The notes under the pieces: generated by a model | Seen by the model: the letters and a program-made list of their open reading frames with translations, nothing else | What the model was told of the DNA's origin: nothing | The model's database searches: none | IMG/VR virus record: IMGVR_UViG_3300014208_000024 | Location: 32,001 to 96,000 of that record | Length of the DNA: 64,000 bases | Source of the DNA: a virus | Lineage: Duplodnaviria > Caudoviricetes | Strand: one strand, 5' to 3' | In this document: in pieces, positions 2,918 to 43,409 of the stretch | How the letters are laid out: every line of letters starts with the position of its first letter | Position numbering within the stretch: the first letter of the stretch is position 1 | Position numbers and translations under genes: made by a program

Positions 2918-3138
2918 GAAAATTTCGGGGAAAAGCAGCAAAAGTGTTTTTTCTATTCTCTACCACTGAGCTACATCCCCCATGTTTTGTATGATATTTC
3001 ATACATTAATGCCGTTTTTTGTACATAATGTAGTACATATCCAACATTATTTGGAGGGATGGTGGGATTCGAACCCACGACCTTTTGAATCATAGTCAAA
3101 TGCGAAGTAACTCTTGCAATTGCCACCGAAAAATTTTC
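2918..3138 (-). ncRNA. Y-RNA-like element Y3 (permuted tRNA, AUG/His loop, long acceptor linker)
   Basis: Family stem; TTTGA-CTATGAT-TCAAA; T-arm precedes D-arm. Confidence 0.75.
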
Positions 3139-9289: not shown

Positions 9290-9519
9290 AAAAATTATGT
9301 AGATTTGATCCTAACATAAATTTTCTAATCAGGTTGAATTAAAGAATGTAGAGTTTTTTGTTTTTTTAATCATAGGAATTTTTTTTCAAACAAATTTCTT
9401 AAGTGGATTTTTCCACCTTTGTCTTAAAAGACTCTTTAAAATAGATATAAATATCTTCCTACTATAATAAATAGTAAAAAAAAATCTCAACCCTTTCGAA
9501 TTGAGATTTTTATAAAACC

Positions 9520-10250
9520 CTGAGATTATAGGTTTAGTGAGTCAACTTTCGGGGGATTATTGGTTCCCCACCTTATCCACATACCTTGCGGCATGTACCA
9601 ACTCAATCTCGATTGGTTAGACCAATCACCTCTTTCGTCATAAACTACTCTACTGCTACTACCGCCATAACAAGAGTGCCCCCCTGCCATAACATTTCAC
9701 AATAATCCGTTAAACCTTGCGAGTCAAACGTCCCCAGTTCAACCGAAGTTGCCAGGATCTGAGAGACCTTTCGCCTATAACGCCAGCGGAACTTTTGCTT
9801 GCTTGAATTTTTTTCATAAAATTGAAGTTGTGCTTTTAATTGAAGATGTGCCGCTGGAACAGCTTCGTTCCTTTTGGGAACGAAATACTATACACCCTCT
9901 GCGCCCTTTTGCATCGGTACGCTCTCACCTTCGCCGCCCTGTAACTCTTACGAGAACGAGAACTCCAAAGATAAATGGAACACGCTCTAAAGCTTGCTAA
10001 ACCTTGAACATTATTCCTCGGCTTTTCCTATTGCCCCTTTCGGAGATCAACCGCCTCAAGCACTTCAGAGACGATATTTCACTCAGCAGTTGCCCTTGTG
10101 AAATGTACTAACCTATTGTATGCTCGACTTCTTTTCAAAAGCGACAAGATATTAACCTCGCCTTTATCCTGGTCACCCAGTTTATTTTCCTGACCCTTTC
10201 GGATCAGGCTTGACCACCAGTAGGTTGTCAACGACAGCACACTGCCATAA
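9520..10250 (-). ncRNA. Large structured ncRNA, GOLLD-like (about 730 nt)
   Basis: GC-rich non-coding island with many GNRA/UUCG hairpins, own promoter, boxA and terminator; size and tRNA-proximal phage context fit GOLLD. Confidence 0.6.
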
Positions 10251-10370
10251 ATTTTTTATCAATATTTTAAAGAACGTATCTTACTTAATTTTCTACTCTA
10301 TACGCAAAGATAAGAAAAAAGTTTCAAAAAAACAAGTTTTTTTTATTTTTTTTTTAAAAAACTTTTTTTA

Positions 10371-10454
10371 AGAGACGTAACCAGGCTGCTCAACCACTAC
10401 CCTTGCTTTCTTCCGAACCTGGGGGAGTTCGTAGGAGCCTGCCTGTTACGCTTT
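10371..10454 (-). ncRNA. ffs: Small SRP (4.5S) RNA
   Basis: Long hairpin with CAGGTTC-GGAA-GAAAGCA domain IV motif; boxA and promoter upstream. Confidence 0.85.
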
Positions 10455-13027: not shown

Positions 13028-13035
13028 TAACAGTG

Positions 13036-13112
13036 TAGCAACAGTGGGATTCGAACCCACAAAAATCCTCCGCCTTATGAGAGCGTTGCGCTACCAATTG
13101 CGCCATGTTGCC
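13036..13112 (-). tRNA. tRNA-Met or Ile2 (CAU)
   Basis: CGCT-CTCATAA-GGCG. Confidence 0.8.
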
Positions 13113-13120
13113 ATTAAAAT

Positions 13121-13329
13121 AATGATGTGTGAAAGCCTCCTACTTTCATAATCTCACTGACTTACACAGTTAGAGAGTCTCGGAATTTCACAACAAAGAC
13201 AATTACAATCAAACAAATGCTAATTCTTTACGAAATGAGCACCTTGCTTTAACCGTGTTGCCAAACACATCGCCTTTGTTGATCTACTGCTGAACTCTTA
13301 ATTACAGCTCTTATGCAAACACATCACTT
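13121..13329 (-). ncRNA. Rod-shaped ncRNA with central bubble, 6S-like candidate
   Basis: Closing helix GTGATGTGT/ACACATCAT, 13-bp CAACAAAGGCGAT/ATTGTCTTTGTTG, symmetric 11-nt bubble. Confidence 0.5.
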
Positions 13330-13408
13330 GCTTAAAAACAATTCATGCATTAATTGTTAGAAAGCGGGGGAAACACTCTCTCCTTTGCAAGTAAAGATTG
13401 TGAATCCT

Positions 13409-14311
13409 TTATCTTATAATATTTAATTCCTTTTCAGTCCATACCTCAAATGGTATGTTATTTTTTTTACAATATTTTTTAACAGCTTTAATTTTTTCTT
13501 TATTATTCCATCTATTTAACAATCTTTTTGGCTTAACTTCAACTATTTTTTTTAGTTCTTCTTTGTAAAAAATTTCAAAATCTATAATTGTACTTCTTTT
13601 TCCATTCCTATATTTTATATTGTATGGCTCGTAATTATAATAAAGAACATTATCATCTTTTTCTAATATTTCCATAGCTATTAACTCATAAGAACTTCTG
13701 TATTTTATTTCTTTTTTATTTTTATTACTATAATAAATTCCACCTTTATATTTTTTATGTGATGGAGAAATCCCAAACATTCCATTGCTTTTTCCGCTAT
13801 TTTTTCCTTTTATAGAATTTGATATTTTCTTTTTCACATCCTCGCTTTGTGATGCACATTTTTTAGAACAATAAATGTTTTCATGCTTATTAACTTCTTT
13901 TCCACAAAATTTACATCTTGGTTTTTCTTTTATATTTTTTTTCTTACCTGCTTCAATACGCTCTATTAAAAATCCAAACGCACCATTTTCTCTAATGCGT
14001 TTTTTTATAGAATCTCCTATGTTTTTTTTCGTTTTTTCTGATTGAATTCTTTTGTTTGCACAACTTCTAGAACAAAACATAGAATATTTTTTTTTCTCAA
14101 AATCTGTTTTTTTTAAAATAATCTCATATTTTTTTCCACATCTCAAACATCCAAACTCATACTCTAATCTTTCTATTTTTCTACTATTAGATGCTTTTTG
14201 TATCATGTTTTTTTTGTTTGGGTTTTTTTTACAATTAATTATATGACCACCAAGTTGTTGTTGCTTGTCATATTTTATTAATTGTCCACAATATTTACAT
14301 TTTTTTTCCAT
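13409..14311 (-). CDS. Homing endonuclease, Zn-ribbons plus TnsA-like PD-(D/E)XK domain
   Basis: YRSSYE...YEPYNIKY...IDF...IVEVKP. Confidence 0.8.
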   Translation of the reverse strand: MEKKCKYCGQLIKYDKQQQLGGHIINCKKNPNKKNMIQKASNSRKIERLEYEFGCLRCGKKYEIILKKTDFEKKKYSMFCSRSCANKRIQSEKTKKNIGDSIKKRIRENGAFGFLIERIEAGKKKNIKEKPRCKFCGKEVNKHENIYCSKKCASQSEDVKKKISNSIKGKNSGKSNGMFGISPSHKKYKGGIYYSNKNKKEIKYRSSYELIAMEILEKDDNVLYYNYEPYNIKYRNGKRSTIIDFEIFYKEELKKIVEVKPKRLLNRWNNKEKIKAVKKYCKKNNIPFEVWTEKELNIIR

Positions 14312-14365
14312 TTTTTTGTATTTATTTTACTATAAATATCAGCAAAAAATAAAAATTGAACTCTG

Positions 14366-14437
14366 AGCGGTATACTGGATTTAAACCAGCGACCTTCACA
14401 TTGGCAATGTGACATTCTATCACTGAACTAATACCGC
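14366..14437 (-). tRNA. tRNA-Gly(GCC)
   Basis: TCACA-TTGCCAA-TGTGA. Confidence 0.9.
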
Positions 14438-14440
14438 ATA

Positions 14441-14607
14441 AAATTAGGGAAATTTCGAACTAAGCATTTTTCTTTTTCTGCCCCATTTAACCACTCTGGA
14501 ACCCCCCCGAATTACTCCTTATTTGTCGAGGGGGATGGATTCGAACCACCGAAGGCTTACGCCAGCAGATTCCTTATCGAAGTAACTTAATTTGTTACCA
14601 CTAATTT
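14441..14607 (-). ncRNA. Y-RNA-like element Y4 (permuted tRNA-Tyr-type body, no anticodon loop)
   Basis: Family stem; long variable arm, T-arm, acceptor, D-arm CAGAGTGGTTAAA. Confidence 0.75.
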
Positions 14608-15387
14608 ATATTTTTTATTCCAATTTTCTATTTTGTTTTTTAAATCATCTAATGAAATAGAACATTTTTTATTTTTACTTGAATTATTTGAATGAACCAT
14701 TAATTTGCAATTTGCTGGATGAGAAATAATATTTGAATCAATTTTTTGTTTAAAACCTTCCGAAATTGAAAACATGTGATCTCTACTAATTCCATTTAAG
14801 TTATTCCCTTTATTCTTTGCACAATACCATCCAAATTTTTTAATCAACTCAAAGTCAAATTCTTCTACGAAATCTTTTAGATTAAAATTAAATCGACACT
14901 CTGATTTATATATATTAAATTCAGTCATCTTTTTTTTATCAAAAATTTTTCTACAATTTATCCCACAAAATTTATTTTTTCTTTTTTTAAATGGCAAAAT
15001 AGCATTACACTCTAAACAAAAATTTGGATTTTCATAATATTTGTCAATACCATTTTTTTTAATATTAGCATTTTTAATGTTTTCTTTTGCTTTGTCACTA
15101 AAAACAACTTTTCTGCCAGTATTTTTCTTATTGTTAAATGATGTAGAACAACTTAAAGAACAAAAAGTATTAAACCTTTTTTCGTATGAAATTAAATTAC
15201 CACAATGTTTACATTTTTTAATATCAATTTTAGGTTTATGAAATTCATTATAACAAGTTAAGGAACAAAAATGTTTTCTTCCCATTTTTTCACTTCTTTT
15301 AAATTCTGTTTTTGTTTTTTCAAACTCATTTTTACAATTTTCGCAAATTATTAAAATTGTTTTTCTATTATTCTTAAAAATTTTCAT
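14587..15387 (-). CDS. Zn-ribbon HNH-like homing endonuclease
   Basis: CxxC repeats; ISRDHMFSI...HPANCKL. Confidence 0.75.
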   Translation of the reverse strand: MKIFKNNRKTILIICENCKNEFEKTKTEFKRSEKMGRKHFCSLTCYNEFHKPKIDIKKCKHCGNLISYEKRFNTFCSLSCSTSFNNKKNTGRKVVFSDKAKENIKNANIKKNGIDKYYENPNFCLECNAILPFKKRKNKFCGINCRKIFDKKKMTEFNIYKSECRFNFNLKDFVEEFDFELIKKFGWYCAKNKGNNLNGISRDHMFSISEGFKQKIDSNIISHPANCKLMVHSNNSSKNKKCSISLDDLKNKIENWNKKYKLVVTN

Positions 15388-15459
15388 ACTTTTATTTTTC
15401 TTATAAATATTAAAAAAAAATAAAAGTGGAGTTTTTTTGAGTCGAACTTGTATGCTTAG

Positions 15460-15533
15460 TGGAAGTGAAGGGTTTCGAACCCTCATACCTTATGCTTGCA
15501 AAGCATCTGCTCAGCCAATTGAGCTACACCCCC
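15460..15533 (-). tRNA. tRNA-Ala(UGC)
   Basis: TTTGCAA loop, G3:U70. Confidence 0.9.
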
Positions 15534-15615
15534 AGATTTCCTATTAACTCTTCCATTCACCCTAAAGTGGGTGGGTTTACAGAACTTCGGAAAGACTTTC
15601 GTCTTGTTCAATTAG

Positions 15616-15689
<74 letters not shown>

Positions 15690-15780
15690 AAATGATAGTC
15701 TTTCCCATCTGTCACCCTTAGATGTGATTATTAAAAATAATCAGTGTATTGCGGGTTGTCTACACCATCCTTTTTCAAAA

Positions 15781-15927
15781 AACAGGGAAAATTTATAAGA
15801 GTTTGTTTTACGTGCTCTAACCGACTGAGCTATCCCGCCATTTTCCTTTTATTTGTGGCGGGAGCAGGATTCGAACCTACGGCGACGGCATTATGATTGC
15901 GAAGTAACTCTCATTGTTGCCACTGTT
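15781..15927 (-). ncRNA. Y-RNA-like element Y5 (permuted tRNA, Met CAU loop)
   Basis: Family stem; GCA-ATCATAA-TGC. Confidence 0.75.
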
Positions 15928-15945
15928 TTATCTTAAATATGTTAA

Positions 15946-16098
15946 AAATTAGGGAATTCTTCGCAGAATCTGTTTTTAAGCGCTCTAACCAACTGAGCTA
16001 TCCCCGCATTATTTTTTATTTAGAGCGGGGAACAGGATTCGAACCTATGGCCTCTGTCTTGGAAGGACGATGAAATTCTACATTTTGCCACTAATTTT
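15946..16098 (-). ncRNA. Y-RNA-like element Y6 (permuted tRNA, Gly UCC loop)
   Basis: AGTGGCAA/TTCCCT stem; GTC-CTTCCAA-GAC. Confidence 0.72.
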
Positions 16099-16102
16099 AT
16101 TG

Positions 16103-16177
16103 TCGGGGTAACTGGATTTGAACCAGCGAACACTTGCATCCCATGCAAGCCCATATAGCCATCTGTGGAACACCCCG
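16103..16177 (-). tRNA. tRNA-Pro(GGG)
   Basis: CTTGC-ATGGGAT-GCAAG. Confidence 0.85.
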
Positions 16178-16245
16178 TAAGGTGCGGAATTTAAAGTCGT
16201 GGAGTCACAATGCTCAACGGCACAAACCTTCCGCTGTTTGTTTTG

Positions 16246-16320
16246 TCTGGGTAAAGGGATTCGAACCCCCGAACACGTGCTTCCAAAGCACGCCCGTATA
16301 GCCATCTGCGGAACACCCAG
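16246..16320 (-). tRNA. tRNA-Pro(UGG)
   Basis: CGTGC-TTTGGAA-GCACG. Confidence 0.85.
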
Positions 16321-16426
16321 AAATAAAAGAGAGAACATCTTATGAGATGCTGTCCTAACCATCACCGTTCACGTTTCAGGTCAGTAACTCAAGTCTTGTG
16401 AACCTCCCAAGACCCTTTTCTTTTTG

Positions 16427-16501
16427 TCGGGTAAGCAGGATTCGAACCTGCGAACATCTGTCTCCGAAACAGACCCATATAGCCATCTGTGGAACTACCC
16501 G
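16427..16501 (-). tRNA. tRNA-Pro(CGG)
   Basis: TCTGT-TTCGGAG-ACAGA. Confidence 0.85.
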
Positions 16502-16521
16502 AATTTTAATTTCATTTTCAC

Positions 16522-16610
16522 TGGTAGCGGGTGAGGGACTCGAACCCCCGCTTCCCTTTTGGAGAAGTCCAGCTTATGAGACTGGCAAGATACCACTTCT
16601 CTAACCCGCA
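16522..16610 (-). tRNA. tRNA-Met(CAU) with long variable arm
   Basis: CCAGT-CTCATAA-GCTGG; CTTCTC/GGGAAG arm; 1:72 mismatch; CCA. Confidence 0.8.
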
Positions 16611-16617
16611 ATATTTG

Positions 16618-16699
16618 TCGAAAGGGAGGGAGTTGAACCCCCATAGCCGAAGGCGACGGTTTTACAGACCGCTGATTTAGCCGATTTACCATCCTTTCG
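16618..16699 (-). tRNA. tRNA-Tyr(GUA)
   Basis: CGGT-CTGTAAA-ACCG, class II arm. Confidence 0.85.
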
Positions 16700-16817
16700 A
16701 AAACTTTGGCTCATGGGTCAGTTACTATCCCATTTTTATTTAACGCTATTCCAAGGCGACTAACTTGTGTCCAACAACGCATCCACTATGCAGCCAAAGG
16801 GAGATTTTTAAAATTTG

Positions 16818-16902
16818 TGAGAGTAGAAGGATTCGAACCTCCAACGCCCCGAAGGGCAACAGGGTTACAGCCTGTCAGACATCCTGGTTGTCTAATACTC
16901 CC
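16818..16902 (-). tRNA. tRNA-Tyr(GUA)
   Basis: ACAGG-CTGTAAC-CCTGT, class II arm. Confidence 0.85.
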
Positions 16903-16906
16903 ATTT

Positions 16907-17058
16907 AAATCAGGGTAAAAGCGAATAAGCTTTTTTGTTTTTGAATTTTTCCCCATAGTTTAAAATTTAATTGGTGGGGAAAGCAGGATTCGAACCTACA
17001 ATGTTTAGTTTTACAGACTATTTTCTTCCGAAGTAACTCATTCTGTTGCCACTGATTT
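16907..17058 (-). ncRNA. Y-RNA-like element Y7 (Tyr GUA loop, T-arm, acceptor with ACCA, no D-arm)
   Basis: Family stem; TAGT-CTGTAAA-ACTA. Confidence 0.7.
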
Positions 17059-17059
17059 G

Positions 17060-17131
17060 TGGAGGATAACGATACCGATTCGTTGGTCTGTTGCTTGCAA
17101 AACAACCGCTTTACCATTAAGCTAAGCCCCC
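17060..17131 (-). tRNA. tRNA-Ala(UGC), atypical T-loop
   Basis: GTTGT-TTTGCAA-GCAAC; G3:U70; T-loop ATCGGTA. Confidence 0.7.
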
Positions 17132-17811
17132 AATTTATAATAAGAGAAAATGTGATTTTTATGAGATTTATTAACACCTCTACAAACCTTAGAAACACAA
17201 TTCCAATCAAACCCATCTTCTATAACTTGCCTTCCAAAATTATAAATTTTTATCAAATTATTTTCTAAATTATAACAAAAAACTTTTTTACAATTCTTAC
17301 TATTTATTCCACTATTTTTTTCTTTTGTTTTTTCACTCCATTTTAATCCAACTCTTTTAGCAGACATTTTTTCTTTACTTTCTTTAGAATGATTTTTTCC
17401 ATAAAATCCATTTTTATCTCCAAGACAACTTGTTTTTCTTGTTTTTGACATCTTTATTTTTGATTCTTCCGAGTGTTTGAAAATTCCTTTTTTACCTTTG
17501 TTCCAAGGAACAACACTGAATGAACCATCTCCACCATTTGTCATATTTGTAAGCTCAAACCCCCAAGTTTTAATTTGAGAAATCCAATATTTTTCCCAAA
17601 AATCACAACTTAACTCATCAGTTTCTTCTATGATAAAAAGTTCTGGTAACAATCCATTTTTTTTTAATTTTTTAACCCAAGCAGTTTTTTTTGTATTTTT
17701 ACTTTCATTTAAATGGTCTCTAAATCTTCTTTCTACCCTATATGTTTTTCCAACATATTTTATACTTTTATTTCTTGGGTCAGAAAGTAAATAAATATAA
17801 ACTTTTTTCAT
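17122..17811 (-). CDS. GIY-YIG homing endonuclease with NUMOD3/NUMOD1 motifs
   Basis: YIYLL...KYVGKT...R; GFYGKNHSKESKEKMS. Confidence 0.9.
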   Translation of the reverse strand: MKKVYIYLLSDPRNKSIKYVGKTYRVERRFRDHLNESKNTKKTAWVKKLKKNGLLPELFIIEETDELSCDFWEKYWISQIKTWGFELTNMTNGGDGSFSVVPWNKGKKGIFKHSEESKIKMSKTRKTSCLGDKNGFYGKNHSKESKEKMSAKRVGLKWSEKTKEKNSGINSKNCKKVFCYNLENNLIKIYNFGRQVIEDGFDWNCVSKVCRGVNKSHKNHIFSYYKLGA

Positions 17812-17846
17812 ACTTTTTTATTATAAATATAATAAAAAAAAATGAA

Positions 17847-18206
17847 TTATGGATTAATTAATGGATTTATTTTTTGTTTTGTTAATTTATATACCCTATT
17901 ATTAAAATCTTCTAATAAAGATTTGGGTATTTTTATTTTTTTATCTTCAAATTGTTTAAGTATTTCATACTTAGAAAAACACCCTTCAACAATACCCTCT
18001 GACCACATATTAATATGCAACCCCCAAGATTTTTTTCCCATAATTACAGTTTTCAAAATGTTTGGGTGACAACTTTTAAGATTATTAATTTTTATTTCAC
18101 CATTTTCAAATTTTCTGAATCCAAATTTTCCATCATCAGAATCCAGATCAAATTCCACTTTAACATCTGAACCGCAGAAAGTAAGTATTCCACATCTATA
18201 AGACAT
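17847..18206 (-). CDS. Hypothetical protein
   Basis: ORF. Confidence 0.6.
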   Translation of the reverse strand: MSYRCGILTFCGSDVKVEFDLDSDDGKFGFRKFENGEIKINNLKSCHPNILKTVIMGKKSWGLHINMWSEGIVEGCFSKYEILKQFEDKKIKIPKSLLEDFNNRVYKLTKQKINPLINP

Positions 18207-18435
18207 TAAAAAAAACGTGAAGATTTCGTTAAACTTTTCAGAATACTTTTGTAATCTTTTATGATTTCTTGTACCAGAGATTTGTTTTTTTTCTTCAATT
18301 TTTCTTAACCTCTCTTTAATTGATTCGCTTTTCGCATGGCTGTTCCCTCCAAAGTTTTAATTATTAATATGATAAAGTTGATTTTGCTCAATATCATTGT
18401 TAGCTTTATCGTTCAAAAACTATGATATTATATTG

Positions 18436-18509
18436 TAAATCAGGGAATAGTTACCGAGGGAGTTTTTTGATTTGCAGTCGAAGTATCCCTACTGATTGCC
18501 ACTGACTTT
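18436..18509 (-). ncRNA. Minimal Y-RNA-like element Y8 (Cys GCA loop only)
   Basis: Family stem closing GA-CTGCAAA-TC. Confidence 0.65.
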
Positions 18510-18510
18510 G

Positions 18511-18583
18511 AGCGGGTAAAGAGGTTCAAACTCTCGACTTTCAGATTGGAAATCTGACGCTCTATCAGCTGAGCTATACCCGC
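18511..18583 (-). tRNA. tRNA-Gly(UCC)
   Basis: TCAGA-TTTCCAA-TCTGA. Confidence 0.9.
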
Positions 18584-18688
18584 ATTATTTTAGTTTATAA
18601 AAAATAATATAATTTAAATTTTTTTTCACAATTTGTTAAAGAAAATAGATTTTCTAAAATTTTGTGATATTTATATGAAAAATATTAT

Positions 18689-19369
18689 ATGACACCACTT
18701 TATACACAAGAAGAATTTGACAACGCTAAAGGTTGCGACAAATTGCCATGTAAATGTAAATATTGTAAAGAAACATTCTTTAGATATAAGTATATAATTA
18801 AAGCAGCATTAAACCCAAAAAACAAGCAAACTAATGATTATTGTTCAAGAAATTGTCAATATCAATCTCAGTTTAAGCATGAAACTATAAGATGTGACAA
18901 TTGCAATATTGAAATTAAAAAATTAATTTCTACTACAAAAAGACATAAAAATCATTTTTGTTCGCACTCATGTTCTACTAAATATTTTAACGCTCACAAA
19001 ACAACTGGAATTAGACGATCTAAATTAGAAATATGGCTTGAATCACAACTCACTTTTCTTTATCCAAGTCTTGAAATTCATTATAATAAAAAGGATGCCA
19101 TTGGATCAGAATTAGATATATATGTACCCTCTTTAAAAATTGCATTCGAATTAAATGGAATATTCCATTATGAGCCAATTTATGGTAATAATAAATTAGA
19201 TCAAATAAAAAATAATGATTCAAGAAAATATAAATCTTGTATTGATTTAAACATATCTTTGTGTATAATAGATTCATCTCAATTAAAATATTTTAAAGAG
19301 AAAAATTGTAAAAAATATTTAGATATTATTATTAATATTATAAACAACACAATGAATACTGGACAATAA
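18689..19369 (+). CDS. Zn-ribbon plus PD-(D/E)XK endonuclease (paralog of 39934..40587)
   Basis: RSKLEIW...ELDIYVP...FELNGIFHY. Confidence 0.8.
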   Translation: MTPLYTQEEFDNAKGCDKLPCKCKYCKETFFRYKYIIKAALNPKNKQTNDYCSRNCQYQSQFKHETIRCDNCNIEIKKLISTTKRHKNHFCSHSCSTKYFNAHKTTGIRRSKLEIWLESQLTFLYPSLEIHYNKKDAIGSELDIYVPSLKIAFELNGIFHYEPIYGNNKLDQIKNNDSRKYKSCIDLNISLCIIDSSQLKYFKEKNCKKYLDIIINIINNTMNTGQ

Positions 19370-19426
19370 TAACCAGCATTCATTATGTGTTTTAAATTCA
19401 CCAACATGTCAAAGACCATTATACTG

Positions 19427-19498
19427 CGGAATGTGTGGGATTCGAACCCCTCCTTCGCCGTGACGGGGCGATACTACTACCATTATACGACACACTCC
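19427..19498 (-). tRNA. tRNA-Asp(GUC)
   Basis: TCGCC-CCGTCAC-GGCGA. Confidence 0.85.
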
Positions 19499-19527
19499 AA
19501 TTTTCATTTATTTATAAAGAACGTATT

Positions 19528-19569
19528 AAAACAAAAAACCCGAATCTTTTTTTGGGATTCGGGTTGTTT
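19528..19569 (-). terminator. Attenuator terminator of Asp/Gly/Ala/Tyr/Met/Pro operon
   Basis: ACCCGAATC...GATTCGGGT followed by TTTTTGTTTT. Confidence 0.85.
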
Positions 19570-19599
19570 GTTCACCTTTTAAGTTTTATAAAAACTTCA

Positions 19600-19713
19600 T
19601 TAAGGTTTTGAGTTAAACATACCCGTCCCACATCCATAATCAGCATCCGCTGCACATGGATAACCGCCCATTGGGGAAGTTTCTGGTTGACGATATGTAA
19701 AATTTTGTTTCAC
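19600..19713 (-). CDS. Leader peptide (M)KQNFTYRQPETSPMGGYPCAADADYGCGTGMFNSKP
   Basis: 37-aa GTG-start ORF (internal ATG possible); 16 consecutive codons from P,M,G,Y,C,A,D; antiterminator GGGACGGGTATGTTT. Confidence 0.78.
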   Translation of the reverse strand: MKQNFTYRQPETSPMGGYPCAADADYGCGTGMFNSKP

Positions 19714-19862
19714 CTTTATTATGTTTTTATATTATTAAATATCTCAAAAAAAATTGTTTTCACAGATTCATACGCAAAGTTACAAAAAAAGTTACATAAA
19801 AAACAAGTTTTTTTCAAAGTTTTTTTAAAATATTTTACAACTTGTTGATTATTAAACTATTA

Positions 19863-20321
19863 TTATTTTGCTTTATCATCTAATTTTTGAAACATTCTTA
19901 AATCTTTTTGAAAAGAAACTGGAAAAGAGTTGTGTTTTTGAATCATTTGATCTATTTTTTCCTGGGTAATTGGATCTCCATTTGATGAATTGATTCCTTT
20001 TTTAAGCTTTATTGCATCTTTTTCCATTCTTCTTCTTATATAATGATATCTAACCAGGTTTTTTGTATAATCAGATATAAATGGCCAGTTTTTAATTATT
20101 TGATAAGACTTTTCTTCGTGATTTGTAAAGGAATAATTATATCCATCTTTTTTTAATGTAGCAACAAATGGTTTTCCTATATCATGAAGCAGCGCTGCAG
20201 TAGCAAATCTTTTTTTAGAAGAAAATAGTGAATACCAAAAAACTATTAATGTATGTACCAGCACAGAATGTTTGTGATGTTTATTTTGTCTTAAAAATAA
20301 TGTGATAATAAAATGTTTCAC
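19863..20321 (-). CDS. HD-domain phosphohydrolase
   Basis: HT...AALLHDIGKP...HE...H...DD. Confidence 0.85.
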   Translation of the reverse strand: MKHFIITLFLRQNKHHKHSVLVHTLIVFWYSLFSSKKRFATAALLHDIGKPFVATLKKDGYNYSFTNHEEKSYQIIKNWPFISDYTKNLVRYHYIRRRMEKDAIKLKKGINSSNGDPITQEKIDQMIQKHNSFPVSFQKDLRMFQKLDDKAK

Positions 20322-42073: not shown

Positions 42074-42251
42074 TTTTCATATTCTTTTATTTGCAAGAAC
42101 AAAACTTGGTTTTCCCAGGCAAACTGAATTGTTTTTGTGTTAATTCTTTCTGTAATTTGTGCACTCATATTATATTTTTAAAACAATATAAAAAAAAATC
42201 CCCCCAAAATCAAGAGATTTCAGAGGAATTTTAGAAACGAAACGAAACGAG

Positions 42252-42324
42252 CCCGACCAGAGGGATTCGAACCCACAACCATCTGTTTTAGGGACAGTTG
42301 CTCTGCCAATTGAGCTATGGAAGG
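42252..42324 (-). tRNA. tRNA-like gene with CUA (amber) anticodon, degenerate acceptor
   Basis: CTGT-CCCTAAA-ACAG; two acceptor mismatches, C33. Confidence 0.55.
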
Positions 42325-43290: not shown

Positions 43291-43335
43291 AATAAAATTT
43301 TAATTTAAGTTATAACCGCACAACATGTGCAATCG

Positions 43336-43409
43336 AAGGAAAGACAGGACTCGAACCTGCGACCAAATCGGTTCTAGAAACCGTTGCTCTGCCACTGAGC
43401 TACATTCCC
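43336..43409 (-). tRNA. tRNA with CUA (amber) anticodon
   Basis: CGGT-TTCTAGA-ACCG; canonical D and T arms. Confidence 0.7.

Follow-up and report, generated by a model that had tools for sequence, protein, structure and literature searches.

To our knowledge, all described leader-peptide attenuators regulate genes of amino acid biosynthesis, transport or aminoacyl-tRNA synthetases. In the ilvGMEDA and ilvBN leaders (isoleucine, leucine, valine) and the thr leader (threonine, isoleucine), control codons for several amino acids are clustered in a short translated ORF, a terminator competes with a mutually exclusive antiterminator overlapping the end of the ORF, and the speed of the ribosome is the read-out. 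The trp attenuator (trpL) has four regions with the pairings 1:2, 2:3 and 3:4; termination is the default, and a stalled ribosome frees region 2. The attenuator pheM-pheST of E. coli has a Phe-rich leader and controls phenylalanyl-tRNA synthetase. T-boxes sense the status of tRNA and switch between terminator and antiterminator before translation-related genes; they bind one uncharged tRNA via the specifier codon and the T-box, without translation.

Here we describe a candidate leader-peptide attenuator upstream of the largest tRNA array of a virus. The stretch analysed, below called the window, comprises 64,000 nucleotides (bases 32001-96000) of a 372-kb virus record with 29% G+C. The genes neighbouring the leader match those of Prevotella Lak megaphages at 70-82% DNA identity (blastn against GenBank phages), and the source virus is a giant Lak-like phage. 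Its host is presumably of the Bacteroidota type, without Shine-Dalgarno sequences. The sequencing runs containing the leader DNA are DNA runs only, from groundwater metagenomes.

The leader ORF and its tRNA array

Within 300 nt, a promoter and an A-rich start region are followed by the ORF, a terminator and the first tRNA gene (Table 1). The ORF starts 62 nt past the -7 box and ends 102 nt ahead of the first tRNA, and in the RNA fold its start codon is unpaired, as part of an A-rich stretch. The initial annotation, which had proposed a leader peptide for this tRNA operon, left the start between a GTG and an internal ATG. The GTG at 19713 is retained because 14 of 16 homologs have an aligned ATG and one (L003) has GTG, as in the window; these aligned starts rule out the internal ATG (codon 15).

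Table 1. Candidate regulatory features of the leader region and the six leader modules of the genome (window positions unless marked as genome)
Feature	Position	Strand	Description
Promoter	19775..19807	-	CTTG (-33-like), 21-nt spacer, TAACTTTG (-7); kept in all E-leader homologs
T-run box	19734..19753	-	T-run/GAGATATTTAAT in the 5' untranslated leader; similarly placed in most modules and homologs
Leader ORF	19600..19713	-	37 codons; GTG start, TAA stop, in-frame TGA right after
Region 1	19692..19698	-	ACATATC, codons 6-8; can pair with GGTATGT of region 2; MFE fold
Control codons 14-29	19627..19674	-	PMGGYPCAADADYGCG; codon/tRNA match and codon-position entropy
Region 2	19615..19629	-	GGGACGGGTATGTTT, codons 29-33; 5' strand of the candidate antiterminator
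Region 3	19554..19569	-	AAACAACCCGAATCCC; common to the antiterminator and the 5' arm of the terminator
Intrinsic terminator	19528..19565	-	10-bp stem AACCCGAATC/GATTCGGGTT, 9-nt loop, U tract
boxA-like element	19511..19522	-	GTTCTTTATAAA, between terminator and first tRNA; likeness to rrn boxA in sequence only
Regulated array E	13035..19498	-	6.4 kb, 13 tRNAs; ARAGORN and Rfam
Leader A		-	core QSRFQVVFFVQQVQ; array Arg(ACG)/Val/Phe/Gln
Leader B		-	core LSLCLCLLL; array Leu x5 and Cys
Leader C	genome 31657-31734	-	core KK..K.KK; array Lys x4
Leader D		-	core NIHINTNTHKHNTT; array Thr/His/Asn
Leader E		-	core PMGGYPCAADADYGCG; array Asp/Gly/Tyr/Met/Pro/Ala
Leader F		-	core WSSRRRSSSR; array Arg(CCU,UCU)/Trp/Ser

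ARAGORN and Rfam found the operon composition that had been listed from the letters alone: Asp, Gly x2, Ala x2, Tyr x2, Met(CAU) x2 and Pro x4. The genes are arranged in the order Asp, Gly, Ala, Tyr x2, Met, Pro x4, Ala, Gly, Met, the glycine anticodons being UCC and GCC and both alanine anticodons UGC (second copy at 17060-17131). The first gene, tRNA-Asp (19498), follows the terminator hairpin after 39 nt, which leaves no space for another promoter. The array also holds unusual tRNA-like elements. Two tRNA matches in the window are weak or odd: at 15856-16007 (minus strand) ARAGORN reads an Ala(CGC)-like tRNA with an insert of about 70 nt, and at 3061-3126 (minus strand) there is a partial tRNA match; both coincide with cassettes that the initial annotation had called permuted tRNA or Y-like. 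Between tRNA-Asp and tRNA-Gly lies an antisense ORF of 226 aa (18689-19369, plus strand), Cys-rich and without a Pfam match. Two homologous arrays (L015, L016) carry IS605 OrfB/TnpB-type genes at a similar place. The motif CTGCAAA is present at 18471-18477.

Sixteen consecutive codons had been claimed to use only Pro, Met, Gly, Tyr, Cys, Ala and Asp, and codons 14-29 (19674..19627) indeed read so. Fourteen of these 16 codons specify amino acids for which the array has a tRNA, and 13 are readable under strict wobble rules, GCT being left out. When all six-frame ORFs of 20-45 codons in the genome are ranked (n = 2051), the leader comes first with 13 of 16 codons readable by the anticodons of its array; the runner-up has 10. 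Over the whole leader 18 of 36 codons are readable by the array anticodons (P = 2.7e-4). The match between the leader codons and the array thus exceeds chance. Each of the six classes (P, M, G, Y, A, D) occurs already within the twelve codons 14-25.

The set of control amino acids comprises these six, not seven as annotated. Cysteine was dropped because the two Cys codons are variable in homologs (C/S/F/L/G/Y/V and C/N/L/Y/T/Q/I). A normal tRNA-Cys(GCA) gene is found in array B (genome 23807-23891), which has a Cys-rich leader of its own.

We take the upstream box CTTG-N21-TAACTTTG to be of the Bacteroidota TAnnTTTG promoter type, its function being assigned from the consensus. Copies of it lie ahead of leaders A, B, D, E and F and of the GOLLD RNA, and another is found at genome position 77659, before a protein gene upstream of array H. 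The promoter of leader C has diverged from the shared box. No further promoter of this type was found between 19793 and 10323. Boxes of the GTTCTTTAAA type stand after the terminators of four modules out of six (A, B, D, E) and after the GOLLD promoter; we take them to resemble the rrn boxA, by likeness of sequence only. The GTTCTTTAAA and TCTTTGACATGTTGG boxes recur inside the tRNA arrays, for instance at 19401-19415. Of 13 strict boxA-like matches in the genome, 10 are on the minus strand, eight of these in or adjoining tRNA or GOLLD regions.

Conservation of the ORF and of the alternative pairings

Homologs of the leader were collected by three routes. The neighbouring HD-domain gene led to one IMG/VR relative, degenerate DNA patterns to two metagenome contigs, and a two-sequence profile run against 1.8 billion proteins to fourteen further proteins of 36-53 aa. 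The resulting set contains 16 leader homologs of 36-41 aa, from other metagenomes. In GenBank phages, blastn with the leader region gave chance matches only, the Lak matches falling in the neighbouring AAA-type gene, and tblastn with the leader peptide gave noise only (E about 8).

In the DNA alignment of 12 sequences, all gaps inside the ORF are of 3 or 6 nt. The column entropies of the control codons at positions 1, 2 and 3 are 0.43, 0.53 and 0.97, and the variability of third positions is concentrated in these codons. This pattern is the signature of selection on codon meaning, and we infer that the leader ORF is translated.

Twenty peptide columns are conserved in at least 70% of the 17 sequences, and 16 of these 20 contain D, G, Y, M, P or A; the conserved consensus is P.MGGYP.A.D.ADYG.G.G. 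Thr30 and both Cys positions are free to vary. Each homolog has 15-22 residues of the set among about 36. In all homologs with enough downstream DNA, a terminator comes next after the ORF, and behind it lie tRNA genes belonging to the Asp, Gly, Tyr, Pro, Ala and Met set. Loss of the amino acid bias with retention of the same tRNA set was not seen: homologs keeping the array keep the bias. The composition is conserved as had been predicted, but the predicted divergence of order is not observed within the family, where residue order is kept; it occurs only between paralogous leaders. The E family also conserves four residues outside the set (K2, T6, Q9, F33). Conserved order and conserved non-set residues would equally fit a functional peptide or a constraint at the RNA level.

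The terminator hairpin (19565..19537) is G+C-rich, has a folding energy of -13.3 kcal/mol and is followed by a U tract extending to 19528. Compensatory changes occur in six of its ten pairs across the homologs. The pairing of GGGACGGGTATGTTT (19629..19615) with AAACAACCCGAATCCC of the terminator, suggested in the initial annotation, reappears as the same helix in the fold of the nascent RNA and is accompanied by compensatory changes in the homologs. It is kept in 86% of the alignment cells, compared with 35-57% in controls with the partner displaced by 1-3 columns. The core pairs of the candidate antiterminator are CGGGU/ACCCG and UGUUU/AAACA. Three pairs are compensatory, with switches from U-A to C-G, from G-C to A-U and from C-G to G-C; a synonymous change of TTT to TTC in region 2 is matched by a change of A to G in the flank of the terminator, and a change of C to G is mirrored in both terminator arms. 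Region 2 shows no synonymous change in the first four homologs, unlike the control codons. When only the RNA spanning regions 2 and 3 is folded, the antiterminator forms (-23.9 kcal/mol), whereas the complete RNA favours the terminator (-29.5 kcal/mol). The antiterminator energy of this leader is modestly better than that of shuffled sequences (P about 0.03-0.04).

In the MFE fold of the full leader, region 1 pairs with region 2. This helix is paired in 89% of the cells in 12 homologs, compared with 23-70% in slid controls, and has one compensatory pair only. The alignment provides a moderate case that the pairing is real.

Parallel modules in the same genome and in other phages

The DNA upstream of every tRNA array in the whole genome was inspected. 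All six arrays are preceded by a module of promoter, short ORF and strong terminator, all on the minus strand. The ORF of each module begins at the first usable start past a TATTTAA-type box. The six leader ORFs are unrelated in sequence, and each is rich in codons for the amino acids of its own array. By a binomial test with the phage's own codon usage, the enrichment is significant for five of the six leaders (P = 1e-4 to 1e-6); it is weak for the Lys leader C (P = 0.11). The true assignment of leaders to arrays is the single best of 720 permutations, both for amino acids and for wobble-decoded codons.

The match extends to isoacceptors. Before the Arg(ACG) array the arginine codons of the leader are CGC and CGT, and before the Arg(CCU/UCU) array they are AGG and AGA only; the leucine and threonine codons of the respective leaders also mirror the isoacceptors present in the arrays. 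In each of the six modules, the cluster of control codons is closely followed on its 3' side by a segment complementary to the 5' arm of the terminator. The complementarity is better than in shuffled sequences in five of them and not significant in leader F. Natural controls are provided by the GOLLD RNA, with the same promoter box, and by a suppressor tRNA(CUA), with a similar box: both lack a leader and a terminator.

The GOLLD RNA itself was identified at 9517-9900 of the window (minus strand, Rfam 226 bits), with a promoter at about 10323-10290 and a GTTCTTTAAAATATTGA box; at 10370-10453 there is a small-SRP-like RNA match of 42 bits. Suppressor-type tRNAs are located at 1634-1706, 42251-42324 and 43335-43409 (minus strand), with the anticodons UUA, reading TAA, and CUA, reading TAG (two copies). 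Every one of the six leaders has TAA as its stop; leader E alone carries another in-frame stop, TGA, immediately after it. In principle, a UUA suppressor reading through the leader stops could disable the attenuators late in infection. Neither a tRNA-Ile nor a clear tRNA-Glu is among the 46 tRNAs that ARAGORN finds in the genome. In the Lys leader, Ile codons (ATT, ATA) are interspersed with the Lys codons, and so an unrecognised Ile tRNA, perhaps of the CAU/lysidine kind or an unusual one, may belong to the Lys array.

Similar leaders occur in other phages. The relative G001 (229 kb) keeps the orthologous leaders of the Gln/Phe/Arg/Val, Leu/Cys and Thr/His/Asn arrays. In LR756502.1 (642 kb), where the arrays have other compositions and the leaders differ accordingly, a leader rich in K/H/F precedes Phe-His-Phe-Lys x3, one rich in N/L/T/V precedes Asn-Leu-Val-Ile-Thr, and one rich in Q/D/P precedes Pro-Asp-Gln (L045/L032/L057). 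In Lak-A1 (MK250015.1), a leader rich in G/H/P/C/R/M (L058, at about 108.1 kb) precedes His-Pro-Arg-Gly-Cys. The enrichment in these leaders has P values of 4e-4 to 4e-3 each, and the true assignment of the three LR756502.1 leaders and the one of Lak-A1 is the best of 24 permutations. No leader was found within 420 nt of one LR756502.1 array, and one Lak-A1 leader is ambiguous. Both records, Lak-A1 and LR756502.1, are unannotated in GenBank.

Proposed mechanism and relation to known systems

We propose, with a probability of about 0.8, that the element acts between a host-type promoter and the largest tRNA array of the phage as a leader-peptide transcription attenuator mediated by the ribosome. 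The conserved ORF, the alternative pairing and the codon-matched paralogous modules support the role of leader peptide first suggested for it.

Transcription would start near 19770, and the ORF would be translated while RNA polymerase advances. When the Pro, Met, Gly, Tyr, Ala and Asp tRNAs are plentiful, the ribosome would reach the TAA stop, where it would cover the 3' half of region 2, or would pass this region altogether. The terminator (pairing 3:4) would then form, and transcription would end before tRNA-Asp. If the leader is not translated, region 1 could sequester region 2, and the terminator would form as well. If any of the six tRNAs is scarce, the ribosome would stall within codons 14-25. 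The ribosome footprint extends about 12 nt ahead of the A site and thus falls short of region 2, so a stall with the A site at codons 14-25 would leave this region free. Free region 2 would capture region 3 before region 4 is made, and the polymerase, meeting no terminator, would enter the boxA-like element and then the array. Since the array encodes the very tRNAs that decode the control codons, the loop would be a negative feedback on decoding capacity, with the tRNA block made on demand.

Codons 26-32 adjoin region 2 or lie inside it. A stall there should mask the antiterminator, and only codons 14-25 should fit the geometry of a positive sensor. Codons 26-32 are therefore better explained by a constraint on the RNA, which fits the absence of synonymous changes there in the first four homologs.

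We infer stalling and read-through, and that the signal is the supply of tRNA rather than its charging. The same architecture might instead sense amino acid starvation or general translation capacity, as set by the level of charged tRNA or by ribosome availability, with the array serving as a general stress or late-infection response. The anatomy fits this reading as well: classical attenuators sense charging, and stalling at sense codons alone cannot separate a shortage of tRNA from uncharged tRNA. However, amino acid starvation is not relieved by more tRNA, so that the feedback would serve no purpose; for a general signal, leaders composed differently from array to array would be superfluous, and the isoacceptor-level match (CGY versus AGR for arginine, also leucine and threonine) argues for sensing of particular tRNAs. 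We regard a starvation sensor as unlikely.

Two further readings deny the ORF a role in attenuation. It could be an independent small gene with a trans-acting product of 37 aa, such as a micropeptide or a bacteriocin-like peptide, the array being transcribed by leakage or from another promoter and the composition match being coincidental. In keeping with this, the peptide is well conserved in sequence and order over the 17 family members, non-set residues included, it has a GG motif after 17 residues, and its promoter and terminator make a complete transcription unit. Yet no Pfam-bearing partner genes were found near the ORF, the short gap between the terminator and tRNA-Asp holds no promoter, and region 2 has frozen synonymous sites that co-vary with the arm of the terminator, a constraint on the RNA needless for a trans-acting peptide. 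Moreover, unrelated peptides match their own arrays, five others in this genome and four in other phages, and coincidence is excluded at 1/720 and 1/24. Given the permutation-tested match at the isoacceptor level across modules and phages, coincidence or a trans-acting peptide is very unlikely. Hardly any credence is left for a structured non-coding RNA, whether an sRNA or a riboswitch of the T-box kind, in which the ORF is incidental and the G+C-rich codons form helices. The leader region does fold well (z = -3.7), and the G+C-rich part contains a hairpin ATCCAT/ATGGAT spanning the Tyr-Pro and Tyr-Gly codons. This inner hairpin, however, shows no compensatory change and is broken in a third of the homologs, no Rfam family reaches its threshold, and the conserved start and stop, in-frame indels and variable third positions are unexpected for non-coding RNA. 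The non-coding reading was rejected on the missing covariation and the coding-type constraint on the ORF.

With the balance about even, all sense-codon tRNA arrays of Lak-type megaphages may each be gated by an attenuator of their own that measures in real time the speed at which host ribosomes decode the codons served by its array. The phage could then replace individual tRNAs as the host pool collapses, through host shut-off or anticodon-nuclease defence, and would not pay for those that are unneeded. In such a genome-wide, self-tuning circuit of tRNA supply, module E, with six amino acids and 13 tRNAs, would be the most multivalent attenuator of the genome. The modules bear on why giant phages carry dozens of tRNA genes and how they use them; they suggest that expression is on demand rather than constitutive and that the phage monitors the decoding of specific codons. 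Phage tRNA arrays would be linked to host defences that deplete tRNAs, leader-peptide attenuation would extend from amino acid metabolism to the tRNA pool, and sequence alone would suffice to read the logic of each array. As compact natural sensors, the modules may also report how much of an individual tRNA is available.

In the full-text literature open without subscription, no publication was found that describes the control of tRNA genes or phage tRNA arrays by leader peptides. An Rfam scan of the element at gathering thresholds gave nothing; the best leader match, Thr_leader, scored 22.6 bits against a gathering threshold of 55 and covered the terminator only. No T-box match was observed in 19300-19950 even at E <= 10.

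The element combines the structural features of leader-peptide attenuators: a leader ORF, matched control codons, a terminator and an overlapping antiterminator. With the ilv and thr leaders it shares clustered control codons for several amino acids, the competing structures at the end of the ORF and the proposed read-out by ribosome speed, without a sequence or Rfam relationship to them. Those leaders regulate biosynthetic enzymes, whereas here the regulated genes are tRNAs, one leader covers six amino acid classes, and the product would feed back directly on the decoding of the control codons. The target belongs to the translation apparatus as in pheM-pheST, which differs in controlling a synthetase, in responding to one amino acid and in being cellular rather than viral. 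The predicted pairings and default termination are those of trpL, but the control codons of trpL lie inside region 1, and here they lie between regions 1 and 2, with a weakly supported 1:2 pairing. A conserved ORF sets the element apart from T-boxes. The GTTCTTTAAA-like box recalls rrn boxA antitermination, where such a box likewise stands before a long untranslated RNA operon; here it would be an accessory to the attenuator and not a part of it. The mechanism is probably that of classical attenuation, applied to a new target, the tRNA genes.
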